64,000 nt of DNA, from the IMG/VR virus record IMGVR_UViG_3300031088_000734; one strand, written 5' to 3'. This stretch comes from a virus. A program made the position numbers and the translations under genes. The notes under the pieces are model-generated. The model did not search any database. It was not told the origin of the DNA and saw only the letters and a program-made list of their open reading frames with translations. This document shows, piece by piece, positions 2,079 through 61,311 of the stretch. Every line of letters begins with the position of its first letter. Positions within the stretch are counted from its first letter, which is position 1.

Positions 2079-2957
2079 TTAAATGTTCAGCATGTCTAAA
2101 AATTCAAGATCCCTACTGGTGAAATACTCACTGTCTCTAAAATTATCTTGCAATATATTAGGTTTTAATTCAAACAACACGTCTTTATTAATTAGTCTAT
2201 TTTTGTAATAACAGAACACTTCAAGTGTATTACCTTTCATGTCTTCTACGATAACAGCAGGAATGATCTTATTTTCGTCAGGGTTCATTGTTGTATAGAT
2301 TTGAATACCTAGTTGGATGTAGTGATGAATTTTAAGATAAGTTCCCTCCTTTTCTTCAAATACAAAATGTTGATGACCCGAAATAACATCATATTCTGAT
2401 ATTTCAAAGACACTTGCTGTTTTTTCATCGTAGTAAGGAACTAACCTATCATCTATTTTTCTTTGAATCGTTTTCTTGACTAGGCTCATTAGCCCTTTAC
2501 TTGTTATAAATTCCACATCAAAAACCATGTCATTTTTTAAATTCATTTGATCGAAGTATTGTTGAATGATGTCTTTTTCTTGTATATCGAATGAAAAAGA
2601 AGAATTTTTCAGTATAAGATCTTCAAACTTTTCTAAATTAAGCGTCCCTTTATATTCAGGAGAACATTTGTTTTTATCATAGTTACTGAATTCAATGAGT
2701 TCTACTTCCCTTGTATTAACTTTATTGTTTTTGGTGTTTTGATAATACATTGTTTTCATTCCCATGTTAGGCATAAGACCTACCAACAAATTTTGCAGCG
2801 TTTGAGTTGACCCATGAGCGAATGGGTTAATGCTATTAGACATTTTTTGATTTTGGTCATTTATTGAAATTAATTTATCATAAATGTCATCACTTATTTC
2901 GTAATCTGGATATATATTTACTGTGTGCTTTGATTTTGTTGGCATGTTTTTCTCCAT
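2079..2957 (-). CDS. C-terminal-motif family protein (ends FLDMLNI)
   Basis: 292 aa; tandem paralog of 2960-3844 (shared PDExKIxPAVxVxDxxGNxLEVxCYYK). Confidence 0.85.
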   Translation of the reverse strand: MEKNMPTKSKHTVNIYPDYEISDDIYDKLISINDQNQKMSNSINPFAHGSTQTLQNLLVGLMPNMGMKTMYYQNTKNNKVNTREVELIEFSNYDKNKCSPEYKGTLNLEKFEDLILKNSSFSFDIQEKDIIQQYFDQMNLKNDMVFDVEFITSKGLMSLVKKTIQRKIDDRLVPYYDEKTASVFEISEYDVISGHQHFVFEEKEGTYLKIHHYIQLGIQIYTTMNPDENKIIPAVIVEDMKGNTLEVFCYYKNRLINKDVLFELKPNILQDNFRDSEYFTSRDLEFLDMLNI

Positions 2958-2959
2958 TT

Positions 2960-3844
2960 TTAAATCATTGTCATATTGAGAAATTCAATATCGCGTTTAT
3001 CAAAATAACCATCTGTAATAAAAGATTCTGATAATAAATTGGGCTTCAGCTCTTTCATTATTTCAGGTGAAATACATTTTTTCTTGTAGTAACAATGCAC
3101 TTCCAATGGATTACCCATTAAATCAGTCACCACCACTGCAGGCACTATTTTATCTTCATCTGGGTTCTTGATAAGCTTTACAAGTAAACTTAATTCATTA
3201 TAACAATGCAATTCTAAGTAGCTCGCTGTCTTTTCATAGTCAAAAAGACACGATTCGTTTAATTCTTTTGAACTGTTATATGTAATGTAACTAGGGGTTA
3301 ACTCATCGAAATAATGAACCGATTTATTATTGATTTTTTTTACGAATTTTTTGTGTTTCATGTATAATTTTTGTTTGCTTTTTAATAGTTCTATTTCAAT
3401 CATTAAATCATTTTTGACCGGCAAATTATCTAACAACTCTTTGAAATGATCTTCCATGTCAGCATTTAAAGTTATAAAATCATGACCAAATACAATATCG
3501 TTAAAAATTGATTCATTGAGAGTGTCTATATGTTTGAATTCTATTTTATTTTTAGGATGCTGATTAAATTTGTGTGCTGAACTTGTCCAATTAATCAGCC
3601 ATTCTTCAAAAAAAGGTATAGGTGATATCGGTGGTAGTGCTAAAATAGGGAAAGAAGACGCAAACGTCGATTTTGTACGTGGCTGCACAATATTTTGGCT
3701 TAGACTTTTTATTCTGGAATTCCAAAAATTTGAACAATTTACATTTTTTATCGAGTCGATATTTATATCTAATAATTCAACAGGATCTTCTATTTCAAAA
3801 GTCGGATATATTGTAAGGGTATGTTGTGACATGATAATCTCCAA
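2960..3844 (-). CDS. C-terminal-motif family protein (ends FLNMTMI)
   Basis: 294 aa; paralog of 2079-2957. Confidence 0.85.
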   Translation of the reverse strand: MEIIMSQHTLTIYPTFEIEDPVELLDINIDSIKNVNCSNFWNSRIKSLSQNIVQPRTKSTFASSFPILALPPISPIPFFEEWLINWTSSAHKFNQHPKNKIEFKHIDTLNESIFNDIVFGHDFITLNADMEDHFKELLDNLPVKNDLMIEIELLKSKQKLYMKHKKFVKKINNKSVHYFDELTPSYITYNSSKELNESCLFDYEKTASYLELHCYNELSLLVKLIKNPDEDKIVPAVVVTDLMGNPLEVHCYYKKKCISPEIMKELKPNLLSESFITDGYFDKRDIEFLNMTMI

Positions 3845-3926
3845 AGATCTTACATCTTATCATATTTCTTACTAAAAATCCATCATTTTATTGTGTTTTT
3901 TATTTGTTAAATAACGAAAAAAAATG

Positions 3927-3955
3927 TTGCCATTTCCAAAAAACATTGATAGAAT
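3927..3955 (+). promoter_or_regulatory. sigma70-type promoter with A-rich UP region
   Basis: TTGCCA-17 bp-TAGAAT. Confidence 0.7.
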
Positions 3956-4129
3956 ACAAACACTTAAACAAAAGCAGTAAATAAACGGTTGAAAACACCA
4001 AAGGTCATAAACGCTAGTCGCCTCAAACCATCTTGTAGGCAAGCGGTTCAATAGAATACTTTATGACATCTTAACTATTTATTAACTTGATATTGGAGTA
4101 TTTTGAAATGTAAAATTTTAAAAATAATA

Positions 4130-4158
4130 TTGACAAAAAGACAAAATAGAGATAAAAT
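4130..4158 (+). promoter_or_regulatory. sigma70-type promoter
   Basis: TTGACA-17 bp-TAAAAT ahead of the 39-aa ORF. Confidence 0.7.
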
Positions 4159-4203
4159 TAACCCGCAACAAAATAAAATTTAACAGAATTGGAGATCTAC
4201 AAC

Positions 4204-4323
4204 ATGGCACAAAGCGAAAAAGTAAAACGTGAAATTGAACTGGCTTACCGTAAACGTGAGTCTGAAATCGAAGCCCAAAAAGACCGTGACTGGGCACGTC
4301 ATCAAAAAACTGCTCGCAAGTAA
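4204..4323 (+). CDS. 39-aa small basic helical protein (not in ORF track)
   Basis: MAQSEKVKREIELAYRKRESEIEAQKDRDWARHQKTARK; GGAG RBS, own promoter and terminator, paralog at 37968. Confidence 0.8.
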   Translation: MAQSEKVKREIELAYRKRESEIEAQKDRDWARHQKTARK

Positions 4324-4340
4324 GTCTTGATTGAGACATA

Positions 4341-4366
4341 AAAAAAACCCCTTCTAGGGGTTTTTT
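4341..4366. terminator. bidirectional intrinsic terminator
   Basis: AAAAAAACCCC-TTCTA-GGGGTTTTTT between convergent genes. Confidence 0.85.
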
Positions 4367-4381
4367 GTTTTCTGCACTTAA

Positions 4382-4873
4382 TTAAGTAGAAACTTTATCA
4401 TTGCTTGAGCGAATTAAATTATAAATATCGTGATCTGTCATATCTCTTCTTTTCGTTATTAAATTTGAATAACTTTCTGCAATCTCTTTTTCTATTTCAG
4501 GTTTTCTTCTCTCAATGACTTTTAATACTTTTACTAGATCTGTAATGCTCTCTGAGTAAATTTCACCTTTCAACATTCCGTCTACAATAAATATTATTGC
4601 TTGTGATTCATCCATCAAAGAAACTTTTGATTGTTTTTCTAATATTGATTTTTTATACTTGTTTTTCATTTTTTTGTAGAAAACAAAACAACTAACTGTT
4701 GAGATTGTTAGCCAAATAAGAAATCCATATACGAAATTCATTAGTTGATCGGGCATGGCATAGTACACAGTTGTAAAACATAAAACCAGCACTAAACAAA
4801 TAGAAAGCACTGAAATAAATAATGAAAACATATTAAATCTCCTTTTAAATATATTATTAAAAAATGTTATCAT
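4382..4873 (-). CDS. hypothetical membrane protein
   Basis: 163 aa, two N-terminal hydrophobic helices. Confidence 0.75.
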   Translation of the reverse strand: MITFFNNIFKRRFNMFSLFISVLSICLVLVLCFTTVYYAMPDQLMNFVYGFLIWLTISTVSCFVFYKKMKNKYKKSILEKQSKVSLMDESQAIIFIVDGMLKGEIYSESITDLVKVLKVIERRKPEIEKEIAESYSNLITKRRDMTDHDIYNLIRSSNDKVST

Positions 4874-5006
4874 TTTATTTTTTCATTTCAAATTTTATTT
4901 ATTATATTATAGTTTTTTTTAACAATTAATTAGTAAAAATCATTTAAGATATTCAACTATTTTAAAATTATGATATACTGTTAAAAAAACAATAATAAAT
5001 TTTATA

Positions 5007-6485: not shown

Positions 6486-6578
6486 GACACTTCAGTGTCT
6501 TTTCCAGCAGATCATTTTGCTTGTTTGGTTATTTTAACAGTGGTATAATTCAATCTCTTAAACAGTGGAGTTAACGAC

Positions 6579-6809
6579 ATGACCATCAAATTGAAAGACG
6601 AAGTTGTAATGAAAGCGGCTGTCATTAAACGCACCAACCATTCAGATTTCGCTAAAAACTTTAAAGGTGTCGTGGTTAATCTTGTTGGTAATACGGCTGA
6701 TGTTCAAACTCAAGATGGCCTTCGTTCAGTGCCTACTGCAAACCTTTCAGCAGTTCGCAGTGTCTATGATTCGAGAACTGAAAAAACATCCAGCATTATT
6801 TTTGATTAA
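6579..6809 (+). CDS. hypothetical protein (possible SH3/KOW-like beta barrel)
   Basis: 76 aa, GGAG RBS, TGGTATAAT upstream; fold is a guess from the GVVVNLVGNTADVQT pattern. Confidence 0.7.
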   Translation: MTIKLKDEVVMKAAVIKRTNHSDFAKNFKGVVVNLVGNTADVQTQDGLRSVPTANLSAVRSVYDSRTEKTSSIIFD

Positions 6810-9155: not shown

Positions 9156-12053
9156 TCACGGTGTGCTACATGCTTGATAAAATGCTCCGCTGACCTGTGG
9201 GCCTCTTGTATATAATTTGCCATCCCATCCAGTAATCTGAGTAATATTCATTGCCCCAGTACCCGCATATTGTGGTGATGTTGCTTTTGTTCCTCCATTC
9301 CAAACCACGTTTACTAAGGATTGAGCACCACCTACAACCACTATTTGCCATTGGTTACCTGAATCATATCTACATACAATTGTTGGTTTAGTACCTACTG
9401 CATATTGTGTGTTAGGTTGGTTGGTTAACGTTTGTGACTCAGTTGCTGATGTAGTGTTTCTTATTTCACCAGTAGCCACTTCTTGTATACGATCTTGACG
9501 TGTTCTGGTTTGATTTAAGTAACAATATTGTGTCTGGTAGAATCCAGTTCCAGCATTCACAGTACTTGCATCAGGCGAAAATGCAGAACAACTGTAGAAA
9601 CCACTGCTGTTAGCCCATGCCGTGTAAGTAGAAGCAATCGCTACCCACTGTTCAACTTTAACGTTACCAGACACTTTTGATGTTGCTGCACCAATTGAGT
9701 TTGTAGCTGTTACTGTATAGTTATAAGTTCCTGCAGCTTGTGGTGTTACTGATAAAGCGGCACCTGTTCCTGTTGATACACCAGCTACGGCTACACCAGA
9801 AGCAGCCACATTACCTTTCACTGTGTAGTTTGCAACGTCTGTTCCACTCCATGATAAGGTAAATGCAGATCCATAATTAATAACCGTTGGAGCTGTAATG
9901 GTTCCAATGGTTGGAGCATTAATGACTGTTACTGTTACTGATCTCAATGCACTGTATTTGTTAACACCATTTACCGTTTTAGCTGCAGCCATGTAATAGG
10001 TGTAAGTCCCTGCTGTTGCAGGAGCGGTGCTTGGGAACGTTAAGTTACCATCGTTACCATTTGTTCTTGCCTGACCTATTGCACCTGCACTGATACCACT
10101 GCCCGCAAAGGTTAATGCGGTATTAGGAGCGACACTTATGGCTGTTGCACCATTCACCGTGAATCCACCTAGTGTTGGTATGTTTTCAACAGTTACAGTA
10201 TAGTCGGCATCTAAAGTGGCACCAGCCGCGTTGGTGGCTACCAATTTATAAGAATATGAACCTGCTACACTTGCACTGGTTGAATAACTAGTACTTGTTC
10301 CTAAATCGACTCCGCTAGGACTAACACCCGATGCTGCCACATTACCATATAAGGTATATTTAGTAACGTTTGTACCTGTCCAGTTAGTATTGATCGGTTC
10401 ATTAACAAATACGGCTGCTGGTCTGTTTAATCCACTTATCGTTGGATAATCAACGGTTGTTACTGTTACGCTTTTTAATGAGCTGTCTCTGGTCACACCA
10501 TTGATTGTTTTTGATCCGGCTCCATAATAAGTGACTGCACCAATGCTGGCAGAAGCTTTTGTTGGTAAGCTGGAAGCTGCACCACCAGATGTTTTACCAA
10601 CCAGTGTTGCTCCACTGCTTAATCCGGTACCCACAAATGATAAAGTTTCATTGGGTGATACATTGATGGATGTTTGACCATTTACTGTCATTCCTGTCAT
10701 GGTTGGATCGGCTTCAACACTAACGGTTGTTTTCTTGATAGTTGTTTTGCTGGCTTCGTTAGTACCTGTCAATGTATATTCTAAGCTACCAACTGCTGTT
10801 GGTGTTGTGGTATACGTCAATGCTGTTCCAACATCTTGTGAACCTGTTATTCCAGAACCTGACACACCCGATAATTTGTAATTGCTAATATTTGTCCCTG
10901 TCCAGTTAAACACGATTGGCGTATTTGAAAATGTAGTGGGCACCGTTGAGAAAGTAGATATAGCACCCGCACCTACTACGTTGACAGTAATAGATTTATT
11001 GACTGATTTTCCAGCTCCATTAATACCTGTTAAGACATAATTTTTAGTGCCTGTTATTGCGTCTGCATTAACAGTGTAGGTATCATTAGAAACTGACACT
11101 CCATTGATATTATAACTGTCATTGTTGGTACCTGACCATGTAAAGTTTAATGTATCATTAGGTTCCACCGTTAATGAAGTGTCATTATTGTTTACTTTGT
11201 AAGCTGTAATTGTAGGTAATCCATACACATTGATATTGATTGGATTTGATGTTTTTGTCATACCACTGAAGCTGGTTGTTTTTAAAGTATAACTGAAATC
11301 ACCCACAGTTCCCATTGTCACTACTTTGCTGGTTGCTGTTTTATCGACGTTACCAAACGGGCTTAACTCTAATCCTTCACTGTCATTGATTGACCAGTTA
11401 AATGTAACGTTGTCACCGATGCTCACTTTGTTTTTATCTGAGGTGAAACTACTGATTGCAGAATCTTTAACCACATCAATCATGAGTGAACGACTAGTAT
11501 TATTTTCGTTGTTGTATCCTGTCACATTCAATTTATAGGTGGTGTCATTGACAGGCGATACCGTCAAACTATTACTTAATCCAGTGAGGCTTGTATTTTC
11601 AAGAGATGCTGATTCGGCGTCGGTTACGTTCCATGTCAATTTTGATGATTGACCTTCACCTATTTTAACTTTATCGGCTGTAAAACTAACGACTGGGGTT
11701 GGTTGCACTACTGTTAGTTTTAATGTTTTTTCTTCAATTTTTTTATTGTTGTCAAGTATGATATCGTAGCTTGTCGTCTTCAAAGGCGACAATGGGTACG
11801 AGCCAAATGACTCAGTTTCATTAAAGTTAACATCATTAGAAGTTACTTTTAATGATTTGAGATAATTATAATTCCAGTTAAGTGTTGTTGACTCTCCACG
11901 ATTGATAGTTGCAGGAGCAAGGTTTATCTCACCTGTTATTTCATCAGGAGTGTCTATATTAATTGATCTTGGATCTAATGGAAAATGTACCATGTAGCTT
12001 GCTGATGTTATTGAGATCGCCAATAGAGACATCATCACTATTTTCTTGTTCAT
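9156..12053 (-). CDS. large Ig-like/beta-repeat protein (fibre- or adhesin-like)
   Basis: 965 aa, Thr/Ser/Gly-rich; repeated PTxxxxTVNG..., LxWSGTxVxxY and YTLTATN units; signal-peptide-like N-terminus. Confidence 0.7.
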   Translation of the reverse strand: MNKKIVMMSLLAISITSASYMVHFPLDPRSINIDTPDEITGEINLAPATINRGESTTLNWNYNYLKSLKVTSNDVNFNETESFGSYPLSPLKTTSYDIILDNNKKIEEKTLKLTVVQPTPVVSFTADKVKIGEGQSSKLTWNVTDAESASLENTSLTGLSNSLTVSPVNDTTYKLNVTGYNNENNTSRSLMIDVVKDSAISSFTSDKNKVSIGDNVTFNWSINDSEGLELSPFGNVDKTATSKVVTMGTVGDFSYTLKTTSFSGMTKTSNPININVYGLPTITAYKVNNNDTSLTVEPNDTLNFTWSGTNNDSYNINGVSVSNDTYTVNADAITGTKNYVLTGINGAGKSVNKSITVNVVGAGAISTFSTVPTTFSNTPIVFNWTGTNISNYKLSGVSGSGITGSQDVGTALTYTTTPTAVGSLEYTLTGTNEASKTTIKKTTVSVEADPTMTGMTVNGQTSINVSPNETLSFVGTGLSSGATLVGKTSGGAASSLPTKASASIGAVTYYGAGSKTINGVTRDSSLKSVTVTTVDYPTISGLNRPAAVFVNEPINTNWTGTNVTKYTLYGNVAASGVSPSGVDLGTSTSYSTSASVAGSYSYKLVATNAAGATLDADYTVTVENIPTLGGFTVNGATAISVAPNTALTFAGSGISAGAIGQARTNGNDGNLTFPSTAPATAGTYTYYMAAAKTVNGVNKYSALRSVTVTVINAPTIGTITAPTVINYGSAFTLSWSGTDVANYTVKGNVAASGVAVAGVSTGTGAALSVTPQAAGTYNYTVTATNSIGAATSKVSGNVKVEQWVAIASTYTAWANSSGFYSCSAFSPDASTVNAGTGFYQTQYCYLNQTRTRQDRIQEVATGEIRNTTSATESQTLTNQPNTQYAVGTKPTIVCRYDSGNQWQIVVVGGAQSLVNVVWNGGTKATSPQYAGTGAMNITQITGWDGKLYTRGPQVSGAFYQACSTP

Positions 12054-14956: not shown

Positions 14957-15033
14957 CTCTGCGTAGCTCAGTTGGATAGAGTGCCCGCTTCCGAAGCGGA
15001 CGGTCGTTGGTTCGAATCCAACCGTAGAGGCCA
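14957..15033 (+). tRNA. trnR: tRNA-Arg (anticodon CCG)
   Basis: 77-nt cloverleaf: acceptor CTCTGCG/CGTAGAG, D loop with GG and A20, loop TT-CCG-AA, T arm GTTGG-TTCGAAT-CCAAC, encoded CCA. Confidence 0.95.
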
Positions 15034-15949: not shown

Positions 15950-16729
15950 TTAGATTCCTGCCATTTCTAATACCGACATATTTTCATTAAGTCCATTATC
16001 AAAAACTCCTTTTAAATATAAATCTTTTAATTCCATGTAAAAAATTTCACAATTTTCTGCTGTTCTTATATCACTTATAGAAAAGTGCGGATATATTTCT
16101 AAAAAGGTTTGATTATATAAAAAAGCTTTCCAACTAATTTTATTAAAAAACTGATCGAATTTGTCAATTTCTCCATGACTGATTATATTTAATGGGTCAA
16201 ATGATCTACTAAAATCAATATTTATTTTTTTTTCTATATTTCCTAGCTCATCAAATTTATATTTAATAATGATTACATCAATATCATCATTATTTATATC
16301 TAAAATTCTACTTATTGAATGCTTAATTTTATTAAATTGTGTATCAATAGTGATATTAAAATCAAACATATTGTGTGTTTCTTTGAAAGTCTCTTTATTA
16401 TCAAAAATGTCTCTTTGACCAATTAATCTATAACCTTCTATTTGTTGATTTTTATCATATTCAAAATGAAGAGTTCCAGCAGAATCTTTAACACCAAATG
16501 TAGAGGAAGCATGATTTTTATCACCCACCATATAACGATTAATTCGAATATTCTCAAAGTTAATCGAATTGTCATAATGTTCATTTATTTCATTTAACCA
16601 ATGGATGATTCTATGTTTAAAATAAAAAATGTATTCAGGTTGCATGGAAACCATACAAATTCGTCTACCTTTTAAGATGGAAAAATCTGGTTTTATGTAG
16701 TCAAATTCAACAGTTTCATCAGTTTTCAT
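15950..16729 (-). CDS. C-terminal-motif family protein (ends VLEMAGI)
   Basis: 259 aa; tandem paralog of 16750-17535. Confidence 0.85.
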   Translation of the reverse strand: MKTDETVEFDYIKPDFSILKGRRICMVSMQPEYIFYFKHRIIHWLNEINEHYDNSINFENIRINRYMVGDKNHASSTFGVKDSAGTLHFEYDKNQQIEGYRLIGQRDIFDNKETFKETHNMFDFNITIDTQFNKIKHSISRILDINNDDIDVIIIKYKFDELGNIEKKINIDFSRSFDPLNIISHGEIDKFDQFFNKISWKAFLYNQTFLEIYPHFSISDIRTAENCEIFYMELKDLYLKGVFDNGLNENMSVLEMAGI

Positions 16730-20393: not shown

Positions 20394-21353
20394 TTGTTTT
20401 TTATTGAGGATTTAACAATGAAAGTTATCCAGCACAATGCACATTTTAATCGTTCTCTGCCAAAAAATGTAATTTCCGATAACTTGGTTTCATTTTTGGA
20501 GATGATTAATCAAGAATTTTCATTTGAACAAGCTCATCTCTATCATCTGACGAATGAAAATATCAATGATTACAAAAGTGTCGTCATTGAAGCTATTGGT
20601 AATCGTATTAAATTGCTTCGTGGTGTTGGGCCAAGAGAGAACCAAGAGTCATTGGTTAAGGAAATTAATTCTGATTTTGATGAGATCGTGGATTCAAATA
20701 TTTTGCCAGCATCTTTGATTATTTTCGATTATATCTATGGTTCAACAGTAGAATCTTCAATGGTATTTTTTCATGAGCATAATGATATGTTAATGATTAA
20801 CACTAAATTTTCTACATTAAGCTTTAAAAGCAACTATTTTCAGGCTCCACCAATTTCATCATCTGATGGTCGTTATTATCCTCCTGTTGTAGAATCGCTG
20901 GCTTATGAAAGTTCAACGACAAAGGGGACTTTTCCTTTTGCATCATTTTTAATCCCTGTTAATATGGAGAAAAATCAATTTGAATCCCACTACAGAGAAC
21001 GTCATCAGAAAAAAGCAGAACTTCAACTGAGAGAACTGGACGGTGGTCAATTTGATTTTAAACAATTAACACTTCCACCTAATTTCGACATTCATCAATT
21101 TGTTTCTCGACATCATGGTAATCCAAAAGTTCTTAATGCGAAACTTATCTACAATAATGAAGTTATTTTTAATGATTATGAGATTATTGATCGTGATCCA
21201 CAAAAAATGGTCGCTCAAAAGTTGATCCCGTTTTTGACTGATTTTAAGTCGCAATACGAAATCATTGATAGCATTCCTGTTCAGGTTTCTTCCGAATATT
21301 ATCAACATTTTAAAACTAATATCTTGCCTGTCATTGAGATGGCTAAATGTTAA
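20394..21353 (+). CDS. C-terminal-motif family protein (ends VIEMAKC)
   Basis: 319 aa from TTG; ATG at 20418 after GAGGA is the likelier start. Confidence 0.85.
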   Translation: MFFIEDLTMKVIQHNAHFNRSLPKNVISDNLVSFLEMINQEFSFEQAHLYHLTNENINDYKSVVIEAIGNRIKLLRGVGPRENQESLVKEINSDFDEIVDSNILPASLIIFDYIYGSTVESSMVFFHEHNDMLMINTKFSTLSFKSNYFQAPPISSSDGRYYPPVVESLAYESSTTKGTFPFASFLIPVNMEKNQFESHYRERHQKKAELQLRELDGGQFDFKQLTLPPNFDIHQFVSRHHGNPKVLNAKLIYNNEVIFNDYEIIDRDPQKMVAQKLIPFLTDFKSQYEIIDSIPVQVSSEYYQHFKTNILPVIEMAKC

Positions 21354-21371: not shown

Positions 21372-21400
21372 TTGCCAAAGGGTTTAAAATGTCGTATAAT
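21372..21400 (+). promoter_or_regulatory. sigma70-type promoter of the ncRNA unit
   Basis: TTGCCA-17 bp-TATAAT. Confidence 0.85.
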
Positions 21401-21422
21401 GGCCCCGTTGTAAAGCAGTAAG

Positions 21423-21744
21423 TAATCTTGGGAAGTTGGCTTAAAAGCAGCCATCTTATAATGAGTAGAGCGGTTGCCATAGGTGTTTGGGATTTAGTGA
21501 TGGTAAGCATCGGGTTTAAATGATTTAGCGGTCATTTGAGGGTATCGGTGACAAGTGAGCCACGGTTTGTCGAAATCGAATCCACATTAAAGTAGATTTT
21601 GCAGATCAAAACGTCTCAGCCAAAAACTCCCAGTTCTTGCAATAATGTAAGAATTCGCCGTGGTTGTGGTCTTGGTAAAGTAAGGAGGCACCCCAGAAAT
21701 GGTAAGGCCGAATTCTCTTTTGGCGTAATAGCACACCATGATTA
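21423..21744 (+). ncRNA. structured RNA containing a split mimic of the 23S rRNA GTPase-associated centre (H43-H44)
   Basis: GGAAGTTGGCTTAAAAGCAGCCATC...GAGT (21431-21466) and GCGTAATAGCACAC (21723-21736) match 23S ~1055-1104; closing helix TAATCTTGG/CCATGATTA. Confidence 0.75.
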
Positions 21745-21764
21745 TGATTGTTTTCGCAACAAAA

Positions 21765-21833
21765 CTGCCACTAAGGCTGACCTTAGCCCTCTAAAAGCTA
21801 AAGGGAACGGTTCGACTCCGTTGTGGTGGGCCA
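21765..21833 (+). tRNA. atypical 69-nt tRNA-like element, anticodon CUA (amber), reduced D arm
   Basis: Acceptor CTGCCAC/GTGGTGG + G + CCA; T arm AACGG-TTCGACT-CCGTT; loop CT-CTA-AA; D arm AGG-CTGA-CCT. Confidence 0.7.
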
Positions 21834-21843
21834 ACTTTAAACT

Positions 21844-21880
21844 AAATGCCAGCTCATAGCGATATGATGTTGGCATTTTT
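21844..21880 (+). terminator. intrinsic terminator ending the ncRNA unit
   Basis: AAATGCCAGC...GTTGGCATTT followed by TT. Confidence 0.75.
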
Positions 21881-21936: not shown

Positions 21937-22593
21937 ATGCCTACTCCCGATAGAATTGCTCAGTTAACTGCAGTGATTAATATGAGTCAGCTTGATAAAA
22001 TTGAGCGGTTAACCACTACTATTAAAAAATTCTACGACATTGATGTTGCTGACATAAAACTGGTCAAGAACCAATCTAGCCAGTATGTTGCGAAAACATC
22101 ACTTGGTCCGGCTCGTATTTATGTCTATTCACATTGCATTGATATTAAATTCACATCAACTGTAGAATTTGATGGTCAACAACTTACTCTGAAAAAATCC
22201 ACTGGGGTTATTCAAACCATCTTTGATGACATTAATAAACGAACCGTTATTTTCAATGTCGTAAAATTACGTCAACAGAATGATAAAAATGTCCACTTTT
22301 ATGCGAATACAAAGTTCAGTATTAAGATCGTGGTGCGATTTTCTGCAACTAATCCACAACTGTATTTTAAAGCGACACCTTATTCAACGTATTCTTTCTT
22401 CAACTACATGAATGAATGTGCTATGTCGGGTTATAAAAAGACGATGGAAGTGTATTATTTGAAAGATGAGTTTGATTCAATTACGGGTGTTGACCAAGCG
22501 TTCTCTTTTATTAAAGATTACTTTAAAGGTCGAAATCTAACACTGGATGATGCGAAACGTTTGTCTGACTTACAGGATATGGTGAAAATATGA
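21937..22593 (+). CDS. C-terminal-motif family protein (ends LQDMVKI)
   Basis: 218 aa, GGAG RBS. Confidence 0.85.
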   Translation: MPTPDRIAQLTAVINMSQLDKIERLTTTIKKFYDIDVADIKLVKNQSSQYVAKTSLGPARIYVYSHCIDIKFTSTVEFDGQQLTLKKSTGVIQTIFDDINKRTVIFNVVKLRQQNDKNVHFYANTKFSIKIVVRFSATNPQLYFKATPYSTYSFFNYMNECAMSGYKKTMEVYYLKDEFDSITGVDQAFSFIKDYFKGRNLTLDDAKRLSDLQDMVKI

Positions 22594-40436: not shown

Positions 40437-41270
40437 TCAACACTCAATCATCTCAATCAATTTTAAATAATCCATAAAAGCCACTTTGTTTGGACCGTTT
40501 AAATTTTCATAAAATATTTTGTTTACAATTTTGAACCAGTTTCTGTTTTCAAAATCAATACTGGTATAATCTAGAATGCTAGTATCCACATCGGTTTTCA
40601 TAGCATTCACATGGTTCACAAACTTTATCAGTAAGTGTTCATTTTCTGGTGTCCCATAGTCATCAAGATAATATTTAATGCCAGTTGACTCTAAAAAATT
40701 CTTAGTTTCAAAGTTTTTCTTACAAATTTTATGGTCTTTATCAAAAAAATAAGTCATAGAGTTTGCATGAAATTGTTGTTTTTTTATTTTGTCTAATAGA
40801 TCTGGGGTTTTGAAACAATGTTTTTTTATTAAAGAATAAATGGAGCCTGTAAGATCAGTGTCGAGATAAAAATTTAAATTCATAGATGGATCATTGAAAT
40901 GATCGATGTTTAAATGTTTTATGAGTCCTGTTTCTGACTGTCCACCTTCATAATGAGAACTGTAATGTGTTTGTCTCCCATTTTCATCATAATAGACATA
41001 GATTGGCATTTCAAAATAACAATCAAACAGTTCATACAGGTTAAAAGTAAAGGTAATGATAATACAATCTTTTGTTTTCTCATTTGCGTGAAAAGATGTT
41101 TCATTTTCTTCTAAATGTAGATGTTCTTGAATCAATTCAAGTGTGATATCTGGATTATTGTTGATTGCATTTATTTTCTCACACATTAAGGCATGCACAA
41201 TTTGAAAATGCCTAGGTTTAAGCATTTCCTTAGTGGATAATTCTTTGTAGTGTGGAAAAAATAATTTCAT
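40437..41270 (-). CDS. C-terminal-motif family protein (ends LIEMIEC)
   Basis: 277 aa; one of a tandem triplet (IVHALxCxKxNAINNN, LNxDHF). Confidence 0.85.
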   Translation of the reverse strand: MKLFFPHYKELSTKEMLKPRHFQIVHALMCEKINAINNNPDITLELIQEHLHLEENETSFHANEKTKDCIIITFTFNLYELFDCYFEMPIYVYYDENGRQTHYSSHYEGGQSETGLIKHLNIDHFNDPSMNLNFYLDTDLTGSIYSLIKKHCFKTPDLLDKIKKQQFHANSMTYFFDKDHKICKKNFETKNFLESTGIKYYLDDYGTPENEHLLIKFVNHVNAMKTDVDTSILDYTSIDFENRNWFKIVNKIFYENLNGPNKVAFMDYLKLIEMIEC

Positions 41271-41289: not shown

Positions 41290-42063
41290 TTAAATTGTCA
41301 TCATCTCTATTAATTTTATATTATCACCTTTTAATGCATTTAAAAATGCATTATAAACTTTTTTAAACCATTCTGGCTTACTGAAATCTAATTTTGAATA
41401 GTTAAAAAACATAGCGTCAACACTTTCTTTTTGAATGATTATATGATTGACAAACATTAAAAATAGACGTTCTGTCTTCAAATTTTCAAATCCTTTAAAT
41501 GAATAAATTGTCTCATGCATTGTATTATTATCAGTAGTTTTGAATTTTTTATACTTTACTTTATGACTGTTATCAAAATAATATCTTAACGTTACTGTTT
41601 TTAAATGAGACATTGGTGTTTGTATGTAATCGTGTTTTACAATTTGATAACCTAATTCTAATTCGCTTTTATTTAAATGAAATTCAAGATAAGAATGCCC
41701 ATCATCAAAATGATCAAGGTTTAACAGCTTCATAATTTCTGATCTTTTTATTGAACCCACATAACGTGATTTCCATTTTTTGAATTTTCCGTCCGCATTG
41801 AAGAAAATAGTAAAAGGTATTCTAAATTTTAAATCAAATAAAACAATATCAAAATTAATGATTACAAACTCTTCTATTGAATAAGAATGAATTTGATGAT
41901 CTACTATTTTTAAACTTTCGATAATCAAGTTTTTGTTAAGTGCTACATTATTATTTATTGCATTTAATTTATCGCATATTAATGCATGCACAATTTCAAT
42001 ATGTTCACTTTTCAACACTTTTTCAGTTGACAAATCTTTATAATCTGGATTCCAAAATTTCAT
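41290..42063 (-). CDS. C-terminal-motif family protein (ends LIEMMTI)
   Basis: 257 aa; tandem triplet member. Confidence 0.85.
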   Translation of the reverse strand: MKFWNPDYKDLSTEKVLKSEHIEIVHALICDKLNAINNNVALNKNLIIESLKIVDHQIHSYSIEEFVIINFDIVLFDLKFRIPFTIFFNADGKFKKWKSRYVGSIKRSEIMKLLNLDHFDDGHSYLEFHLNKSELELGYQIVKHDYIQTPMSHLKTVTLRYYFDNSHKVKYKKFKTTDNNTMHETIYSFKGFENLKTERLFLMFVNHIIIQKESVDAMFFNYSKLDFSKPEWFKKVYNAFLNALKGDNIKLIEMMTI

Positions 42064-46815: not shown

Positions 46816-47457
46816 TTGGGCTTTTTTATGACTACAACAAACCCTGACATCGACTATTTCAAATCAATTTTTGCAGAGTTCTCTGCTGAGCATCAATTGA
46901 AAGTGGACAAGTATTCATCACGAAGACTTTTGAGCTTTTATACACATGAGTTCAAACCACTTATGCTGCATAAATTGGACATTGATGCTGTTGCTCCACT
47001 GGTGTTAAAGCCTTTCAAAGCTTTTAATGTCGAAAGACTGGTCAAAAAAGCAAAAATCATCTTTGATGAGTTTGTTGATGAACGTCTTGAAGGTTTTATA
47101 TTACCCGATTTTTACGATACCTTTGAAACGCATACTATTCAATCTGTTGTATTGAAGAAGGATTATACCAGCCTTCAAGATGTGGCTTATTATCAGGTCG
47201 AATTGATTAGTGACAAAAAACCTACTCGCATTTTTATTAATTTTCATACTGAGCCTGTTACACCATCTTATCGTAGAGACAGCAATAAACGAGGCTCTAT
47301 TAAATATCTCATTGCTGATGTTTACTATAAAGATATGGAATCTATTAAAGAACCTATGTTTGCTTATTATTTAACTGAAGTGAGCGAATTTCTCCAAACT
47401 CCGGTTACTGACATGAGTGAAAATGTCTTAACTTTGATTGAAATGGCAAAAATCTAA
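46816..47457 (+). CDS. C-terminal-motif family protein (ends LIEMAKI)
   Basis: 213 aa; paralog of 46110-46733. Confidence 0.85.
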   Translation: MGFFMTTTNPDIDYFKSIFAEFSAEHQLKVDKYSSRRLLSFYTHEFKPLMLHKLDIDAVAPLVLKPFKAFNVERLVKKAKIIFDEFVDERLEGFILPDFYDTFETHTIQSVVLKKDYTSLQDVAYYQVELISDKKPTRIFINFHTEPVTPSYRRDSNKRGSIKYLIADVYYKDMESIKEPMFAYYLTEVSEFLQTPVTDMSENVLTLIEMAKI

Positions 47458-47536: not shown

Positions 47537-48622
47537 ATGTCTACGTTTAAAGCTACTGTTCTTTCAGTCATTGTTGAGCCACATCCTAACGCTGATGCGA
47601 TTGAACTGGCTCGCGTTGGTGATTTCTTTTCGATTATCCAAAAGGGATACTTGAAAACTGGCGACTTGGCTGTTTATATCCCAGAAGGTGCTCTTGTTCC
47701 TGAATTCATTCAAGAAGAAGTAGGTTGCCTTGGTAAATTGGCAGGTTCCAAGAAAAACCGTTTGAAACCATCTATGCTTCGTGGCGTCCTTAGCCAAGGT
47801 CTTTGCTTTAAGGCCCGTGAAGGCTGGGAAATCGGTGATGATAAAGCCGAAGAATTGGGTATCGTGAAATACGAAGCTCCTATTCCAGCATCCATGAATG
47901 GTGAGATTACCAACGTAGGCATTGAAAACACTTTCCACTTTGACATTGAAAACGTTAAACGCTACCCTGATGTATTGGTAGCAGGTGAAGAAGTCATTAT
48001 GACTGAAAAATTGCACGGCACGTTCACTGTTGCGGGTAGTGTGTATGGTAAAGATCCAATCCCACACACTGTTAATGGTCGCTCTTTCGTGAGTAGCAAA
48101 GGGTTCTTTAACAAAGGTTTGGTGCTTCGTGATAACGAACAAAATGCTCATAACATTTACATTCGTGTAGCGAAGAAATTTAACCTTTACGACATTACGG
48201 CTATCCTGTCAGACCGTTACAAAACCAACGCTTACATTTCAGGTGAAACGTTTGGTGCTGTTCAAGACTTGACTTATGGTCTTGAAGCTGGTGTGTTTGA
48301 TTTCCGTGTGTTCAACGTGTTCCTTGGAAATCGTAGTGATGCAAAAGGCGTGTTTGCAGTTAATGATGATGTGTTGGAAGAGATTCTTGCTGAATTCAAC
48401 TTGAAACGTGTGCCAGTGCTTTACAAAGGGCCATTCAGTAAAGAAGTGATGTTGAAACACACTGATGGTCTTGAAACCTACTCAGGTCAAGAAACGCACA
48501 TTCGTGAAGGGCTTGTTATTGAGCCACTTATTCAGCGTCGTGACCCAACTATTGGGCGTGTTGTCTTGAAAAGTGTTTCAACTGCTTACTTGTCGCGTAA
48601 AGGTGGCACTGAGCTTAACTAA
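47537..48622 (+). CDS. RNA ligase, DRB0094 / Rnl2-type with N-terminal OB-like domain
   Basis: HPNADAIEL...GDLAVYIPEG N-domain; TEKLHGT (motif I), GETFG, FDFRVFNV, REGLVI (IV), VLKSVS (V). Confidence 0.88.
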   Translation: MSTFKATVLSVIVEPHPNADAIELARVGDFFSIIQKGYLKTGDLAVYIPEGALVPEFIQEEVGCLGKLAGSKKNRLKPSMLRGVLSQGLCFKAREGWEIGDDKAEELGIVKYEAPIPASMNGEITNVGIENTFHFDIENVKRYPDVLVAGEEVIMTEKLHGTFTVAGSVYGKDPIPHTVNGRSFVSSKGFFNKGLVLRDNEQNAHNIYIRVAKKFNLYDITAILSDRYKTNAYISGETFGAVQDLTYGLEAGVFDFRVFNVFLGNRSDAKGVFAVNDDVLEEILAEFNLKRVPVLYKGPFSKEVMLKHTDGLETYSGQETHIREGLVIEPLIQRRDPTIGRVVLKSVSTAYLSRKGGTELN

Positions 48623-54882: not shown

Positions 54883-54917
54883 TAGCTAACAATCCATAAT
54901 TAGAACCTATAAATCTT

Positions 54918-55720: not shown

Positions 55721-55761
55721 CTCAAAAAAAAAAGAGTGTTATCCACTCCATTTTTTTTCTA

Positions 55762-56757
55762 TTAAATTTTTATACTTGCTTCAAAGTCTTTTTTCTTTTC
55801 AAATAACATCATAATAAATGATCGTTTTTCTGGATTAATTTCTCTCATTGCTTCATCAACACCTTTTGTCTTATAGGTATTGAGCAATTGTATGTCATAT
55901 TCATTTAATTTTGAAATTTTGTTATATTTATAAACTTTCGTCCAATAAAAATCATCACCTAATTTTTCTTTCAAGTAGCTTTCGTCCTTTAACTTATAAT
56001 TCGTAGACATTTTTTCAGCTAAGTCAAAAATTTCTTTGTTAGTTGTTTTGTTAATTAATGGATAATAGGTGATTGCGAGTATATCGGTATAATTGTTTGT
56101 TATTTTCTCAATAGTCGCAACACCATCATCTATTATCTCAGCCCCTAAAAGAGTAGGCTTATATTGATGGACTTGATAATCCACTTTTGTAAACTGTAAG
56201 CTTGCTTTGACGACTTGATTGGCTATATCAACTTTCAATATATTCTTTTGTAAATTTAGCATTAAAAAGACTGCTAGGCATGACATTGTTGTAATGAGCA
56301 CTAATTTCATGTTGAATGGTTGTTTTCTTTTTGCAAACAATGCAGCAACAAGTGGAACTAGTAAATAAAGCAAACTTATATTTTCAGGTGCATATTCATC
56401 AAATCTATAACTTTTTGGATGATTGATGTTGATTAATCTAATAATAAGATCAATCACAACAAAAAACAGTATTTGATATTTTAAACCTCTGGATATCATA
56501 ATAGACGTTGGGGTATTGCCTTTATGCAATAAGATTACAAGATAACTGGTTGCTAGTAGCCCAATATACATAATACTGTAATAGTAATCTATTTTTAATT
56601 TCCAGTATTCATATGGAGTTCCTAATTCATATTTAAAATTTCCAACTATGCTATAAAAATATCCAGCCGAATTTAACAATCCAAAATATCCGACAGCCAC
56701 AAACAAAACATTAACCAGTAAAAAGGTTAAGGCAACTCTATTATTTACTAGTTTCAT
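55762..56757 (-). CDS. polytopic membrane protein, tandem paralog A
   Basis: 331 aa, ~5 TM plus soluble C-terminal domain; KVDIAN, TLLGAE and YLKEKxGD shared with the neighbour. Confidence 0.8.
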   Translation of the reverse strand: MKLVNNRVALTFLLVNVLFVAVGYFGLLNSAGYFYSIVGNFKYELGTPYEYWKLKIDYYYSIMYIGLLATSYLVILLHKGNTPTSIMISRGLKYQILFFVVIDLIIRLININHPKSYRFDEYAPENISLLYLLVPLVAALFAKRKQPFNMKLVLITTMSCLAVFLMLNLQKNILKVDIANQVVKASLQFTKVDYQVHQYKPTLLGAEIIDDGVATIEKITNNYTDILAITYYPLINKTTNKEIFDLAEKMSTNYKLKDESYLKEKLGDDFYWTKVYKYNKISKLNEYDIQLLNTYKTKGVDEAMREINPEKRSFIMMLFEKKKDFEASIKI

Positions 56758-57766
56758 TTCTATTCACATCCGCGTTCTTTTCATCATGTTTTGTGGCCCT
56801 AATAAGTAAAGCTATTAGAGAGCCTTTTTTTGAAACATCTATTTCTTTTAGTGCATCGTTTAAACCTTTATTTTTATAAATATCAATAATTTTCATATCA
56901 TTTTCTTTGTATCTAGCATTCATTTTATTGTTAAGAGATAATTTTGTTAGCTGATAATTATCTCCCATTTTTTCCTTCAAATAAGTTTCATCATAATTAA
57001 CATGATTGGCGTAAAATTTTTCCACCATTGTAAATATTTCTTCATTACTTGGTTTGTTGGTTGAAACATACATTAAGAGATCAAGAAAATTCGTTTGATT
57101 ATCTGTTAATCTATCTAAGGTTGACACACCATCTTCATAACTTTCAGCTCCTAATAGAGTGACTTTATGTTTCATAATCGGTGACCCAACAGGTTTTAGT
57201 TTACTTATATTGATTGCTGATTTATTTGCTATATCTACTCTTAAAATATTATTTTCTATATTTAAAATAAATGAAACCAGTAAACATGCAAAGGCTACAT
57301 AAACTAGACCTTTTTTATTTTTAAAATCAAAATTATAGGCTAATAAAGCACTTATTATTGCAATAATTAAATAATAAACACCAAATATAGAAGCTTCAAA
57401 CTCTTCAATTGACGTTTTATTATAACCATCAATGGCATATATTTTAATTAGGCTAATTATACCCGTTATAATTAATTGTATGATTAACGCTTTAGATAAT
57501 TTTCTCATTATTTCGCCTTGTCCGCGATATAAAATGATAATTAAATAATTAATCACAAAAAATGTTATAAAAACAATACTGAAGTAATAATCTTTTTTTA
57601 CCTTAAAATACTCTTCGGCTGTTCCTGTTGATAATTCTGATGTAGAAATTATCCCATTTAAAAATCCGGCTGAGTCCATTATTCCAAAATATCCAATTAT
57701 AATCAATGCTAAATTTATTATCAAAAATGCCAATGCTACTTTATTACCTATTAATTTCATTTTCAC
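56741..57766 (-). CDS. polytopic membrane protein, tandem paralog B
   Basis: 341 aa; paralog of 55762-56757. Confidence 0.8.
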   Translation of the reverse strand: MKMKLIGNKVALAFLIINLALIIIGYFGIMDSAGFLNGIISTSELSTGTAEEYFKVKKDYYFSIVFITFFVINYLIIILYRGQGEIMRKLSKALIIQLIITGIISLIKIYAIDGYNKTSIEEFEASIFGVYYLIIAIISALLAYNFDFKNKKGLVYVAFACLLVSFILNIENNILRVDIANKSAINISKLKPVGSPIMKHKVTLLGAESYEDGVSTLDRLTDNQTNFLDLLMYVSTNKPSNEEIFTMVEKFYANHVNYDETYLKEKMGDNYQLTKLSLNNKMNARYKENDMKIIDIYKNKGLNDALKEIDVSKKGSLIALLIRATKHDEKNADVNRNETSK

Positions 57767-58244: not shown

Positions 58245-58434
58245 ATTTATTTTCTCCTTATGGCAGAATATATGACAAACCAACTACAGTCAAATAAATC
58301 AATATTATAAGGATAATACATAATGTTTTAATATAAAAATATAATTAATTAAAATCAAAGTATTATACATAAAGTATGATTGAAATCTTAACGAAAAAGA
58401 TGTAAAGTTTAAGTCCTTAACAAAGGATTAAATT

Positions 58435-58944
58435 ATGAAATTCTTTCTGTTGGTCAGTGTTGGAATACTCAGTGTTTTGTTAGCCACTGCCAATGAGCCA
58501 TTCAACAGAAAATTACCTTATACTTTGTCTATTACTGACAGTCAAAAACAATTGAATTTTTCTGTTCCTACCTCTGTTGGTACCATTTCATACTTTTCTA
58601 CCAATGAAAACAACGAAACATTGTTGACGCAGTGTTTGGCTGGTATTGATGTTATGAACCAAGAACATATCAAGCGTTTAAACTACAACAATAAACAGAT
58701 AGATGCAGACATCACGGTTTTTGTCATGTCAAAAAATGATGACCTATTTAAAGCAATGGTTATTTATTCAAAATTAGATGATAATTCTATTCAAAACAAA
58801 TCAACTGAAAACCTCTGCAATTCTTTAAATGGTTCTTATTCAACAAAAAAATGGATGGTTGATCTTTCGTTCAACAAAATTACTTCAATTGCATTGAATG
58901 AGAACAATCAGCTATATTTGAAGATAGCCAAATATACTGACTAA
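58435..58944 (+). CDS. exported protein, tandem family member 1
   Basis: 169 aa, signal peptide, two Cys. Confidence 0.75.
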   Translation: MKFFLLVSVGILSVLLATANEPFNRKLPYTLSITDSQKQLNFSVPTSVGTISYFSTNENNETLLTQCLAGIDVMNQEHIKRLNYNNKQIDADITVFVMSKNDDLFKAMVIYSKLDDNSIQNKSTENLCNSLNGSYSTKKWMVDLSFNKITSIALNENNQLYLKIAKYTD

Positions 58945-59003
58945 CTAGAATTGTAATCAGTATTTAACCTAGTATACTACTTATACAATTAGGAGGATTT
59001 ATC

Positions 59004-59510
59004 ATGTTTAAAAATTTTATTGCTGCTAGTCTTTTAATATCATCAGGTTTTGTGTATGCAGAAAATATTGTGGATGAAAAACCTTATATTCTTTATGTGA
59101 CAGATAAACAACATAAAATTAGCAATGTTTTAAGACTTGATGTTGATGGATTTCCATCTTCTGGTGGTGGAATACTTAAAGAAAAAAATAAAACCACTGA
59201 TTGTAACCTAGAACCTTATGATTTTGAAGTTTATTCGTCCACTGATCAATTTTCTGGTATGTCTGTAAGAACCTTATCTCAAACTAGAGAGATTTTTCAT
59301 ATTGTGTTTAAATTAACCTACACTGAAGACTTTTCTACTGAAAATGCTATTAAGTTGAACGATACTTGCACTATTGCGAATAATGTCTCTACTTCTGTTG
59401 ATGTCCAATGGGCGGGTGATATTCAGTTTGGAGAAAAGAAAGTTATTAAGCTTCCTAACAAGAATGAACTCTATATGGAAGTGTTGAAAGGATATCCGAT
59501 TGACATTTAA
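59004..59510 (+). CDS. exported protein, tandem family member 2
   Basis: 168 aa, signal peptide VYA|; DVQWAGDIQFG. Confidence 0.8.
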   Translation: MFKNFIAASLLISSGFVYAENIVDEKPYILYVTDKQHKISNVLRLDVDGFPSSGGGILKEKNKTTDCNLEPYDFEVYSSTDQFSGMSVRTLSQTREIFHIVFKLTYTEDFSTENAIKLNDTCTIANNVSTSVDVQWAGDIQFGEKKVIKLPNKNELYMEVLKGYPIDI

Positions 59511-59579
59511 ATATATATTTTAATATGATTGTATTAATCATTTAATTAACTTATAATAAAATTTTATTAGGAGTTAATT

Positions 59580-60110
59580 ATGCTAAAAACCATATTTATA
59601 ACAAGTTCTTTACTTATATCATCTATGTCTGCATATGCGGATGTTGCGTCTTACAAAATTGACATCAAAGAGAAACTTGATGACAGTTCATTTTCAATTA
59701 CAACACCGATGGGCAGCATTGTTCCATTCCAAAAAGGTGGAAATCCATTAAAAAATGAAAAGTGTTCTATTGTCTTGAATGATGGCACTACAAAAACAGA
59801 ATTTGAAACGAACCAAATAAAGTCAGATAAAAATAATACCTTAACTGCATCTGTATATCCTGTTTCTATTGATGGTGATAAAGTTAAATTTGTATTGGTG
59901 TATAGTAAGCAAGATATGATGACTTCACAAGAGGCTCAAGACTTCATGCAGATTGGTGAAAACTGTAAGTTCCATAACTCAGTTGTTCATGCAGTCTCTA
60001 CTGATGTCCATTGGGCTGGTGATGTAACGTTAGGTAAACATACCACTATTCCAGTATCTTCAAATAATTCAATTGATGTACTTATTACAGAAGTTAAACC
60101 AACTAAATAA
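59580..60110 (+). CDS. exported protein, tandem family member 3
   Basis: 176 aa, AYA|; VYPVSIDGDKVK, DVHWAGDVTLG. Confidence 0.8.
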   Translation: MLKTIFITSSLLISSMSAYADVASYKIDIKEKLDDSSFSITTPMGSIVPFQKGGNPLKNEKCSIVLNDGTTKTEFETNQIKSDKNNTLTASVYPVSIDGDKVKFVLVYSKQDMMTSQEAQDFMQIGENCKFHNSVVHAVSTDVHWAGDVTLGKHTTIPVSSNNSIDVLITEVKPTK

Positions 60111-60137
60111 TAGCTCACTCATTTCTGGAGATTTACA

Positions 60138-60671
60138 ATGTTAAAAAAAATGTTAATTGCAAGTTCATTGACACTTATTTCATTATCAGCTTTTGCTGAT
60201 GTCGTTGCACCACCTTTATACAGTATTGAGGTTATAGATACTGATGGGGTCGTTAACCATTCTGTCTTTTCGGTTACCACACCTATCGGTAAAGTAATGC
60301 CTGTTAAAGTGACACAAGAAAATAAAGATAATTCGACTAATTGTTCACTTTCTCTAAAAGACAATAACGAACTTACAGAATTAAACGTTGAACAAAAAAA
60401 CAGTATAGGCATTACATCAACGGTTTATCCGATGTCTATTGATGGTGATAACGTTAAACTTATGTTGACTTACAGTAAACAAGATGATGTCTCTTCAGAT
60501 AAAGCTATTGAATTAAGCAATACCTGTCATTTTGCGAATGCTGTTTCAACAACGACTAATGTTCAATGGTTAGGTAATGTTGAGCTTAATGAAAAAACAA
60601 AAATCCCATTAACTGGTAAAAACAGCTTGTTTGTTCTTATCAAGAAAGTTAATCCTAATGACAACCATTAA
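60138..60671 (+). CDS. exported protein, tandem family member 4
   Basis: 177 aa, AFA|; VYPMSIDGDNVK, NVQWLGNVELN. Confidence 0.8.
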   Translation: MLKKMLIASSLTLISLSAFADVVAPPLYSIEVIDTDGVVNHSVFSVTTPIGKVMPVKVTQENKDNSTNCSLSLKDNNELTELNVEQKNSIGITSTVYPMSIDGDNVKLMLTYSKQDDVSSDKAIELSNTCHFANAVSTTTNVQWLGNVELNEKTKIPLTGKNSLFVLIKKVNPNDNH

Positions 60672-61311
60672 TATCAATCAAGCCGTTAAACATAGCTGTC
60701 AACAACTAGGCTTTCCACAAGAATTTGTGGACTGCTTAGATATTGAGGCTGTATTGGCTGCAGAAAAACAACAAAAAACCATTTTAGCCATCAATTCGAA
60801 TTATTCTGGTTCAATTGACATTCATTCTAAACTGACTGATTCTGTTAACAAGTATAGTATTTGCGTAACATTTGATAATCCAGTTGATTTTCTAGAAAAA
60901 CGATCTTTATTTAATCAAATACACGAAGATTCATTTTGTTTCTTTAATCTTATTTTTGATCATAATTTCAACTTTGTGTCTTTTTCATTACCCTATTGTT
61001 TCCATGCCGAGCATGTATATGAAGAAATTGAGCATGATTTTGTCATCTTTTTTAAATTTGATATTGATAATCAATTAATAGGTTTAGAAGTCCGTGAATT
61101 TCGAGAAAACGATGAATTTTTTATGACCTCAAAGTCAAGCCATCTGTTAATGCCGATTGCTGATGAACTTTTATTGGTTGAATTCCTACGTTACAAATAC
61201 AGTCCAGAAATGATAGAACTCATTCCCGAATTTACCATACCAACAGCTTATGATTTTACATCTTCAGATCTTGAAAGTCGAATACAACTTGCCAGAATGA
61301 TAAAGTTTTAA
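60658..61311 (+). CDS. C-terminal-motif family protein (ends LARMIKF)
   Basis: ATG 60658, in frame with track ORF 60631-61311. Confidence 0.8.
   Translation: MTTININQAVKHSCQQLGFPQEFVDCLDIEAVLAAEKQQKTILAINSNYSGSIDIHSKLTDSVNKYSICVTFDNPVDFLEKRSLFNQIHEDSFCFFNLIFDHNFNFVSFSLPYCFHAEHVYEEIEHDFVIFFKFDIDNQLIGLEVREFRENDEFFMTSKSSHLLMPIADELLLVEFLRYKYSPEMIELIPEFTIPTAYDFTSSDLESRIQLARMIKF

Follow-up and report, generated by a model that had tools for sequence, protein, structure and literature searches.

A C-terminal helix of about 13 residues, with a nearly invariant methionine four residues from the end, was found on sixteen proteins of nine otherwise dissimilar families encoded in a stretch of 64,000 nucleotides (the window). 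The window is a slice of the 179,373-base record G000 (IMGVR_UViG_3300031088_000734). Proteins ending in this tail are called “tagged” throughout the paper. As the same helix sits on many unrelated and fast-changing bodies, it very probably binds one common partner. By analogy with giant Pseudomonas plasmids, we tentatively favour a sequence-specific cargo signal that would be read by a coupling complex of the Dot/Icm type (type IVB).

Tagged genes of the window

An initial annotation had listed sixteen open reading frames (ORFs) with their last seven residues. All were recovered at these places with these endings, and no other ORF of at least 60 amino acids in the window matches the pattern given there (hydrophobic at -7, D/E/K/R/N at -5, Met at -4, I/C/F at -1). 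The tagged genes, with corrected starts, are:

2079..2957, minus strand: family W1, 292 amino acids
2960..3832, minus strand: family W1, likely ATG at 3832 (ORF opens at 3844)
15950..16729, minus strand: family W2, 259 amino acids
16750..17535, minus strand: family W2, 261 amino acids
20418..21353, plus strand: family W3, single copy (ORF opens at 20394)
21937..22593, plus strand: family W4, 218 amino acids
22590..23225, plus strand: family W4, 211 amino acids
23236..23892, plus strand: family W4, 218 amino acids
39044..39691, plus strand: family W5, 215 amino acids
39702..40331, plus strand: family W6, 209 amino acids
40437..41270, minus strand: family W7, 277 amino acids, modelled
41290..42063, minus strand: family W7, 257 amino acids
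42079..42882, minus strand: family W7, 267 amino acids
46110..46733, plus strand: family W8, 207 amino acids, start uncertain
46828..47457, plus strand: family W8, 209 amino acids (ORF opens at 46816)
60658..61311, plus strand: family W9, 217 amino acids, 8 paralogs in the 179-kb record, modelled

Five of the ORFs open with TTG. The start at 60658 was retained, whereas an ATG further downstream (3832, 20418, 39702 and 46828) is likelier for the other four than the start annotated before. W5 may be a distant paralog of the adjacent W6, with hhalign values of 21% without the tail and 56% for the last 55 residues before it. The W6 consensus looks by eye like MORN-type beta-hairpin repeats. In the W9 family, a few paralogs have a tail longer or shorter by one residue, and one (L003 18427-18939, minus strand) lacks the helical end together with the tail.

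Pattern and statistics of the tail

Using the strict pattern, 34 of the 233 ORFs of at least 100 amino acids in the whole 179-kb record were matched, while 0.08 were expected from the rate of the pattern at internal positions (3.2e-4). The frequency of the motif was thus well above background. Met was found at -4 in 61 of the 233 ORFs (background 2.4%). When the last 16 residues were scored with an iterated profile, 44 proteins with scores of 16-30 stood clearly apart from the next score of 2.9. With about 6 near variants, some 50 tail bearers were obtained for the record. The tagged share of ORFs amounted to 20-22% in four related records and to about 19% in a more distant stretch of 400 kb.

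A consensus was derived from 75 families with one vote per family. A motif shared at the terminus had been described correctly, but its length of seven residues was too short, since information reaches from -13/-11 to -1. Asp is frequent at -11, hydrophobic residues occupy -9, -7 and -6, and Glu, Asp or Lys is found at -5. Met -4 is present in 73 of the 75 families at a position fixed relative to the C-terminal end. Hydrophobic residues follow at -3 (71%) and at -1 (91%), the latter being Ile or Tyr. The helix surface is two thirds hydrophobic, and a helix-cap motif lies just upstream in 13 of the 75 families, compared to a background of 1.7%. Codons are mixed within the tail, ruling out a DNA-level cause such as a shared DNA motif or ribosome site. 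Synonymous change is 0.43 in the tail and 0.42 in the body. Both observations place the constraint on the protein and not on the DNA. CheZ and FliM peptides bind CheY, and a similar role as CheY ligand was considered for the tail. It was rejected, as five fragments contained no receiver domain and the common pattern is a generic helix cap.

Bodies of the tagged proteins

A total of 286 tagged proteins was collected, which fall into about 95 BLAST families. The sixteen window proteins form nine families, where about seven had been counted before. In agreement with the accompanying statement on missing alignments outside the tail, no confident alignment was obtained: without the tail, none of the 36 window pairs exceeded a profile probability of 21%. 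In a wider comparison, which covers 164 of 300 pairs, 2 of the 164 exceeded 50% without the tail, compared to 1 of 164 in the control. Soluble tagged families comprise 170-416 residues, and some families outside the window consist of 3-4 hydrophobic segments and a small soluble part, followed by the tail. Conserved columns hold mainly structural hydrophobic residues.

Comparing the records G000 and G002, the tagged bodies were 49% identical and other proteins 71% (p-value of 7e-12). The last 13 residues of the tagged proteins reached 67%, compared to 49% for their bodies (p-value of 1e-7), and Met -4 was kept in 97%. The ratio of nonsynonymous to synonymous change (dN/dS) of the bodies was 0.20 for tagged and 0.12 for other proteins, both below 1. 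With a maximum of 0.47, positive selection on the tagged proteins found no support. The largest tagged family forms a tandem array with 6 copies in this record (L003 7370-12821) and 14 in G001 and G002 (G002 169-181 kb, L038), indicating that its copy number changes fast.

No Pfam domain was found in 131 tagged proteins, none of the PADLOC anti-phage defence models matched the 81 tagged proteins of G009, and PHROGs gave no credible match for tagged proteins. For the W7 protein at 40437-41270, a tblastn search against phages and plasmids yielded no matches; all 13 relatives found in the database share 51-96% identity. AlphaFold models were obtained for this protein (predicted local distance difference test, pLDDT, 86.5) and for the W9 protein at 60658..61311 (pLDDT 79.9). 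The W7 model shows a beta-meander and three helices, with the tail as last helix (262-276). The W9 model is built from helices, a beta-meander and further helices, again with the tail at the end (203-216). The beta-meander and helical end common to both models may reflect a very remote kinship of some families. Fold searches with these models did not rise above noise (the best Z values were 5.7, cystatin-like, and 4.5; no E below 0.001 in a viral library; TM of at most 0.32 in the Atlas), and Atlas feature searches gave no usable family for the tagged proteins. Weak fold matches to inhibitors (Ugi, PsiB, BLIP-like) were at the same noise level and were not taken as evidence. In summary, the notion of a constant C-terminal helix on variable bodies was retained and extended by the protein-level selection and the wider spread, but not its phage framing.

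The DNA appears to belong to a megaplasmid-like element

The G000 DNA appears to be part of a megaplasmid-like element of about 1.86 Mb and low GC content (34%). Identical proteins were found on contigs of 1,281,823 and 1,859,102 bases, and close relatives are present on contigs of 1.07, 1.84 and 1.92 Mb. IMG/VR classes fragments of the element as virus records and G000 as a provirus. The larger untagged proteins scanned in the reachable part of the element include tRNA synthetases, RNA ligases, NAD kinase, Sir2, signal peptidase and efflux proteins, and also TnpB, DnaK, GatAB and a chemoreceptor. No virion family (capsid, portal, terminase) was found among them. Size and type of the element together with this lack of virion families make portal/capsid packaging, one of the roles suggested initially for the tail, unlikely. 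Within the reachable part, the megabase size, multi-copy pilus tips and translation/NAD genes of Dot/Icm-type giant plasmids in the wide sense were all encountered, and the element fits these plasmids as described by Guitor et al. The DnaK of a sister record is 66-68% identical to gammaproteobacterial DnaK; the host is probably a proteobacterium. The samples in which this DNA is best represented come from the phyllosphere and may be its source; no RNA sample was among those listed.

Further features of the window are:

9156-12053, minus strand: exported protein, 965 amino acids; matched over its last 200 residues by shufflon-like pilus-tip proteins that Pseudomonas megaplasmids encode in multiple copies
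14957-15033, plus strand: lone tRNA-Arg(CCG)
47537-48622, plus strand: RNA ligase (PF09414)
55762-57766, minus strand: paralogous pair, 331/341 amino acids, with N-terminal membrane anchor and without known family
58435-60671, plus strand: four tandem ORFs of about 170 amino acids with signal-peptide-like starts

The pilus-tip-like protein has matches at ten places on the Pseudomonas plasmid pMPPla107. Two ORFs resembling the set at 58435-60671, as judged by eye, adjoin on the same plasmid (L022 39898-41015). A second RNA ligase family of the T4 type is encoded elsewhere in the 179-kb record. The non-coding gap between tagged genes at 21372-21880 gave no Rfam match at gathering thresholds and no tRNA with ARAGORN.

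Analogous tags on Dot/Icm megaplasmids and a second class of tails

pMPPla107 carries a Dot/Icm and type IVb pilus cluster in its core region. On this plasmid 123 exact DLGL-stop ends were found, compared to 3 in the control. The Met -4 pattern was matched there just 2 times. None of 79 DLGL proteins contained a Pfam domain, and the core region with its Dot/Icm and pilus genes is free of DLGL ends. Two more Pseudomonas megaplasmids have about 100 and about 50 ends of the DLGL type. Drifted tags instead of DLGL were observed on pPLMAXa and on the P. nitroreducens S00179 contig (IcmB 68% and 62% identical, respectively), where they sit on tandem orphan genes of 400-750 amino acids. For pPLMAXa the tag F-x-x-[DE]-L-G-V was seen by eye, with LGV as the commonest ending (7 of 189). 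The S00179 contig has T-x-x-M-x-x-x-[LF]-[DE]-[LIFM], with T at -10 in 23 cases (5.9 expected) and M at -7 in 17 (3.0 expected). Hydrophobic residues at -7, -3 and -1 are found in all four lineages. We regard the DLGL, LGV and T-x-x-M tags as lineage-specific analogues of the Met -4 tail; common ancestry is not implied.

A different, basic and lysine-rich tail was detected in G009 (1-400000) on 20 of 153 larger proteins, compared to a background of 2.1% (p-value of 1e-10). Proteins of this class include PBECR5, ART-PolyVal, DEDDh exonuclease, PNKP and GNAT domains. Delivery together with conjugated DNA has been proposed for polyvalent proteins of the PBECR5/ART-PolyVal type (PMC5512222). The scored Met -4 class and the basic-tail rule never overlap in one protein of G009. 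In the window's own record the basic class is weak (2 of 40 by the strict rule). Among the large core proteins of pMPPla107 (22-79 kb) and of the Psychromonas SP041 plasmid contig, several end proline-rich or with P-S-F/M and not with DLGL, possibly the signal of ordinary conjugation substrates.

A cargo signal or a docking helix?

According to the tentatively favoured cargo model, genes dispersed across the replicon would supply the donor cell with several hundred binding proteins that are small, non-enzymatic and fast-evolving. An element-encoded coupling complex, e.g., DotL/DotM/IcmW or an LvgA-like adaptor, would be engaged by the terminal helix and its free carboxyl end, and the tagged proteins would enter the recipient together with the DNA or ahead of it. 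There, they would probably block the recipient's defences. If delivered as proteins, the products of genes spread across 1.9 Mb would be able to act in the recipient ahead of the arrival of the DNA. The coupling complex as partner, the export and the targets are the parts of this model that we infer. The location of the tag analogues on Dot/Icm megaplasmids suggests such a role, as does pMEGA4, which encodes the type IV coupling protein (T4CP), DotM, IcmW and DotN. IcmB and Dot/Icm are present on the analogous Pseudomonas plasmids, and multi-copy pilus-tip adhesins are common to the element and pMPPla107. The hydrophobic residues at -4, -3 and -1 agree with the hydrophobic residue near the extreme C-terminus of Dot/Icm substrates, to which Legionella adds a helical motif bound by the adaptor LvgA (PMC7251119). 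Furthermore, the tagged families with 3-4 hydrophobic segments would fit the export of membrane effectors with an inward C-terminus, which is known for multi-pass proteins of Legionella (PMC11602083).

Several observations weigh against a cargo signal. No Dot/Icm genes were found in about a third of the element's length, which is no evidence of absence; IcmB and DotH were not found in the five fragments covering part of the element, and no IcmB homologue was linked to its contigs. The Psychromonas SP041 plasmid contig has a related Dot/Icm core and shows no such tag in 280 kb. Effector-type Pfam domains are lacking in all 131 tagged proteins here and in the 79 on pMPPla107. Legionella and antibacterial effectors often contain enzyme or eukaryote-like domains. 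In both models the tail is a folded helix closing a helical subdomain. The E-block and the FxxxLxxxK consensus are absent from the tail, which has single acidic positions at -5 and -11/-15 only. Legionella Dot/Icm signals, in turn, have no sequence consensus (PMC11602083). Finally, the likely conjugation cargo of G009 bears the basic tail and the core of pMPPla107 is without DLGL, so that the conjugation signal may be another one.

The separate basic tail on the likely conjugation cargo of G009 would suit docking within the cell that bears the plasmid, where the tail would attach its proteins to a single hub in a manner comparable to F-box proteins or SspB. We consider this possible and not far behind the cargo signal. 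Here, the variable bodies would bind proteins of phages, rival plasmids or host defence, and the helix would hand these targets to a common executor such as a plasmid-encoded ClpXP or FtsH, or would activate a common defence effector. The lack of any enzyme domain in 210 tagged proteins, the mostly structural nature of the conserved hydrophobic columns and the occurrence of one tail on soluble and membrane-bound members are in line with such docking. Genes for ClpP and for three FtsH are present on pMEGA4 (10.1101/2025.09.30.679422). Alpha-solenoid binders account for about 20% of the genes of this plasmid, which equals the share of the tagged set. However, the reachable DNA revealed neither a protease nor a receiver-domain partner, and the basic tail that marks likely conjugation cargo is weak in the window's own record. 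The tag analogues, too, come from contigs that had been chosen for carrying Dot/Icm. In general terms, giant conjugative plasmids might run modular adaptors of the F-box kind: several hundred target binders, non-enzymatic, fast-evolving and either soluble or membrane-bound, whose lineage-specific helix would connect to one plasmid-encoded intracellular hub (a protease or a defence executor), and tag and hub would change together from one plasmid lineage to the next.

The hydrophobic residues at -1, -3 and -4 also resemble non-polar C-terminal degrons and PDZ ligands. As a degradation signal, the tail would confer a short life via Tsp/Prc, FtsH or Lon and limit the proteins to a brief action after transfer or stress. 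This is improbable: such degrons are tolerant and unstructured, whereas the near-invariant Met, the helical pattern over 13 residues and the lineage-specific consensus indicate a specific pocket. Similarly unlikely is one very old, diverged superfamily with a buried last helix and no outside partner, despite the common order of beta-meander, helices and terminal helix in the two models, weak profile hints between a few families and the largely hydrophobic helix surface. Without the tail, no window pair exceeded 21% and the wider pairs stayed close to the control, the tail is common to membrane families and to soluble families of very different length, and unrelated bodies on Pseudomonas plasmids follow the same design. 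Moreover, Leu, Ile and Met replace one another at buried positions, which is at odds with a Met that is invariant and stands a constant number of residues before the terminus. A giant phage, with the tail as capsid-loading or compartment-import signal, would match the IMG/VR virus records, and RNA ligase and tRNA genes are known in large phages too. Nevertheless, this origin is very improbable, as the same proteins occur on contigs of 1.28 to 1.92 Mb and the scan of the larger proteins revealed no virion family. Genes for pilus adhesins, DnaK, GatAB, a chemoreceptor and efflux are in line with a megaplasmid, and an analogous tag is carried by the proven conjugative plasmid pMPPla107.

Significance and comparison with known systems

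No published report of the tag was found in literature searches, and the papers on pMEGA (10.1101/2025.09.30.679422) and pMPPla107 (10.1101/385575) do not mention a shared C-terminal tag. Within a class of megabase plasmids, a fifth of the unknown genes becomes accessible through this one tag, whose simplicity allows the complete set to be compiled from sequence data only. Should the tag be a secretion signal, a set of injected proteins of the size known from Legionella would be carried by these plasmids. As a type IVB signal on a plasmid-borne repertoire, its strict consensus would facilitate studies of substrate recognition in comparison to Legionella. Should the tag instead dock on an inner hub, it would represent a bacterial adaptor system of a new kind. 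Both possibilities are testable now, because pMPPla107, a plasmid in culture that has been transferred to a laboratory strain of Pseudomonas stutzeri, carries an analogous tag.

The XVIPCD of antibacterial type IV secretion effectors from Xanthomonas (PMC8740702) is likewise shared by diverse proteins at their C-terminus and passes them on to a coupling ATPase. It spans, however, an entire domain and occurs on toxin enzymes that have immunity partners, compared to a 13-residue helix on proteins without toxin domains.

The F-box/PRANC tails of poxvirus ankyrin proteins and the docking peptides of SspB and RcdA combine a variable binding body with a constant C-terminal docking element and form large families, but share no sequence or Pfam similarity with the tagged proteins (0 of 131). 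Neither a Skp1-like nor a Clp partner was found in the reachable DNA. The bacterial protease adaptors SspB and RcdA are single genes and not hundreds.

The pMEGA plasmids (Guitor et al., 10.1101/2025.09.30.679422) and pMPPla107/pBASL58 (10.1101/385575) are, like the element, of megabase size and low GC content, with mostly unknown genes, multi-copy pilus-tip proteins, tandem paralogs and translation and NAD genes. In contrast to the GC content of 34% and the size of up to 1.86-1.92 Mb found here, pMEGA plasmids have 26%/29% GC and 1.3-1.6 Mb in two clades of Enterobacteriaceae. pMPPla107 differs by its DLGL tail.

Legionella Dot/Icm signals comprise a RalF-type hydrophobic end, the E-block read by DotM and the FxxxLxxxK helix read by LvgA (PMC7251119, PMC11602083), of which E-block and FxxxLxxxK mark subsets of effectors only (PMC7251119). 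Unlike these, the tail described here has a strict consensus with an invariant Met and neither E-block nor FxxxLxxxK, and the tagged set is plasmid-borne and without known effector domains. Common to both are the location at the very C-terminus, important hydrophobic residues close to it and a large, unrelated and fast-evolving set of proteins with membrane members, which makes up about 10% of the proteome in Legionella and about 20% here. Moreover, related plasmids of this element do carry Dot/Icm.

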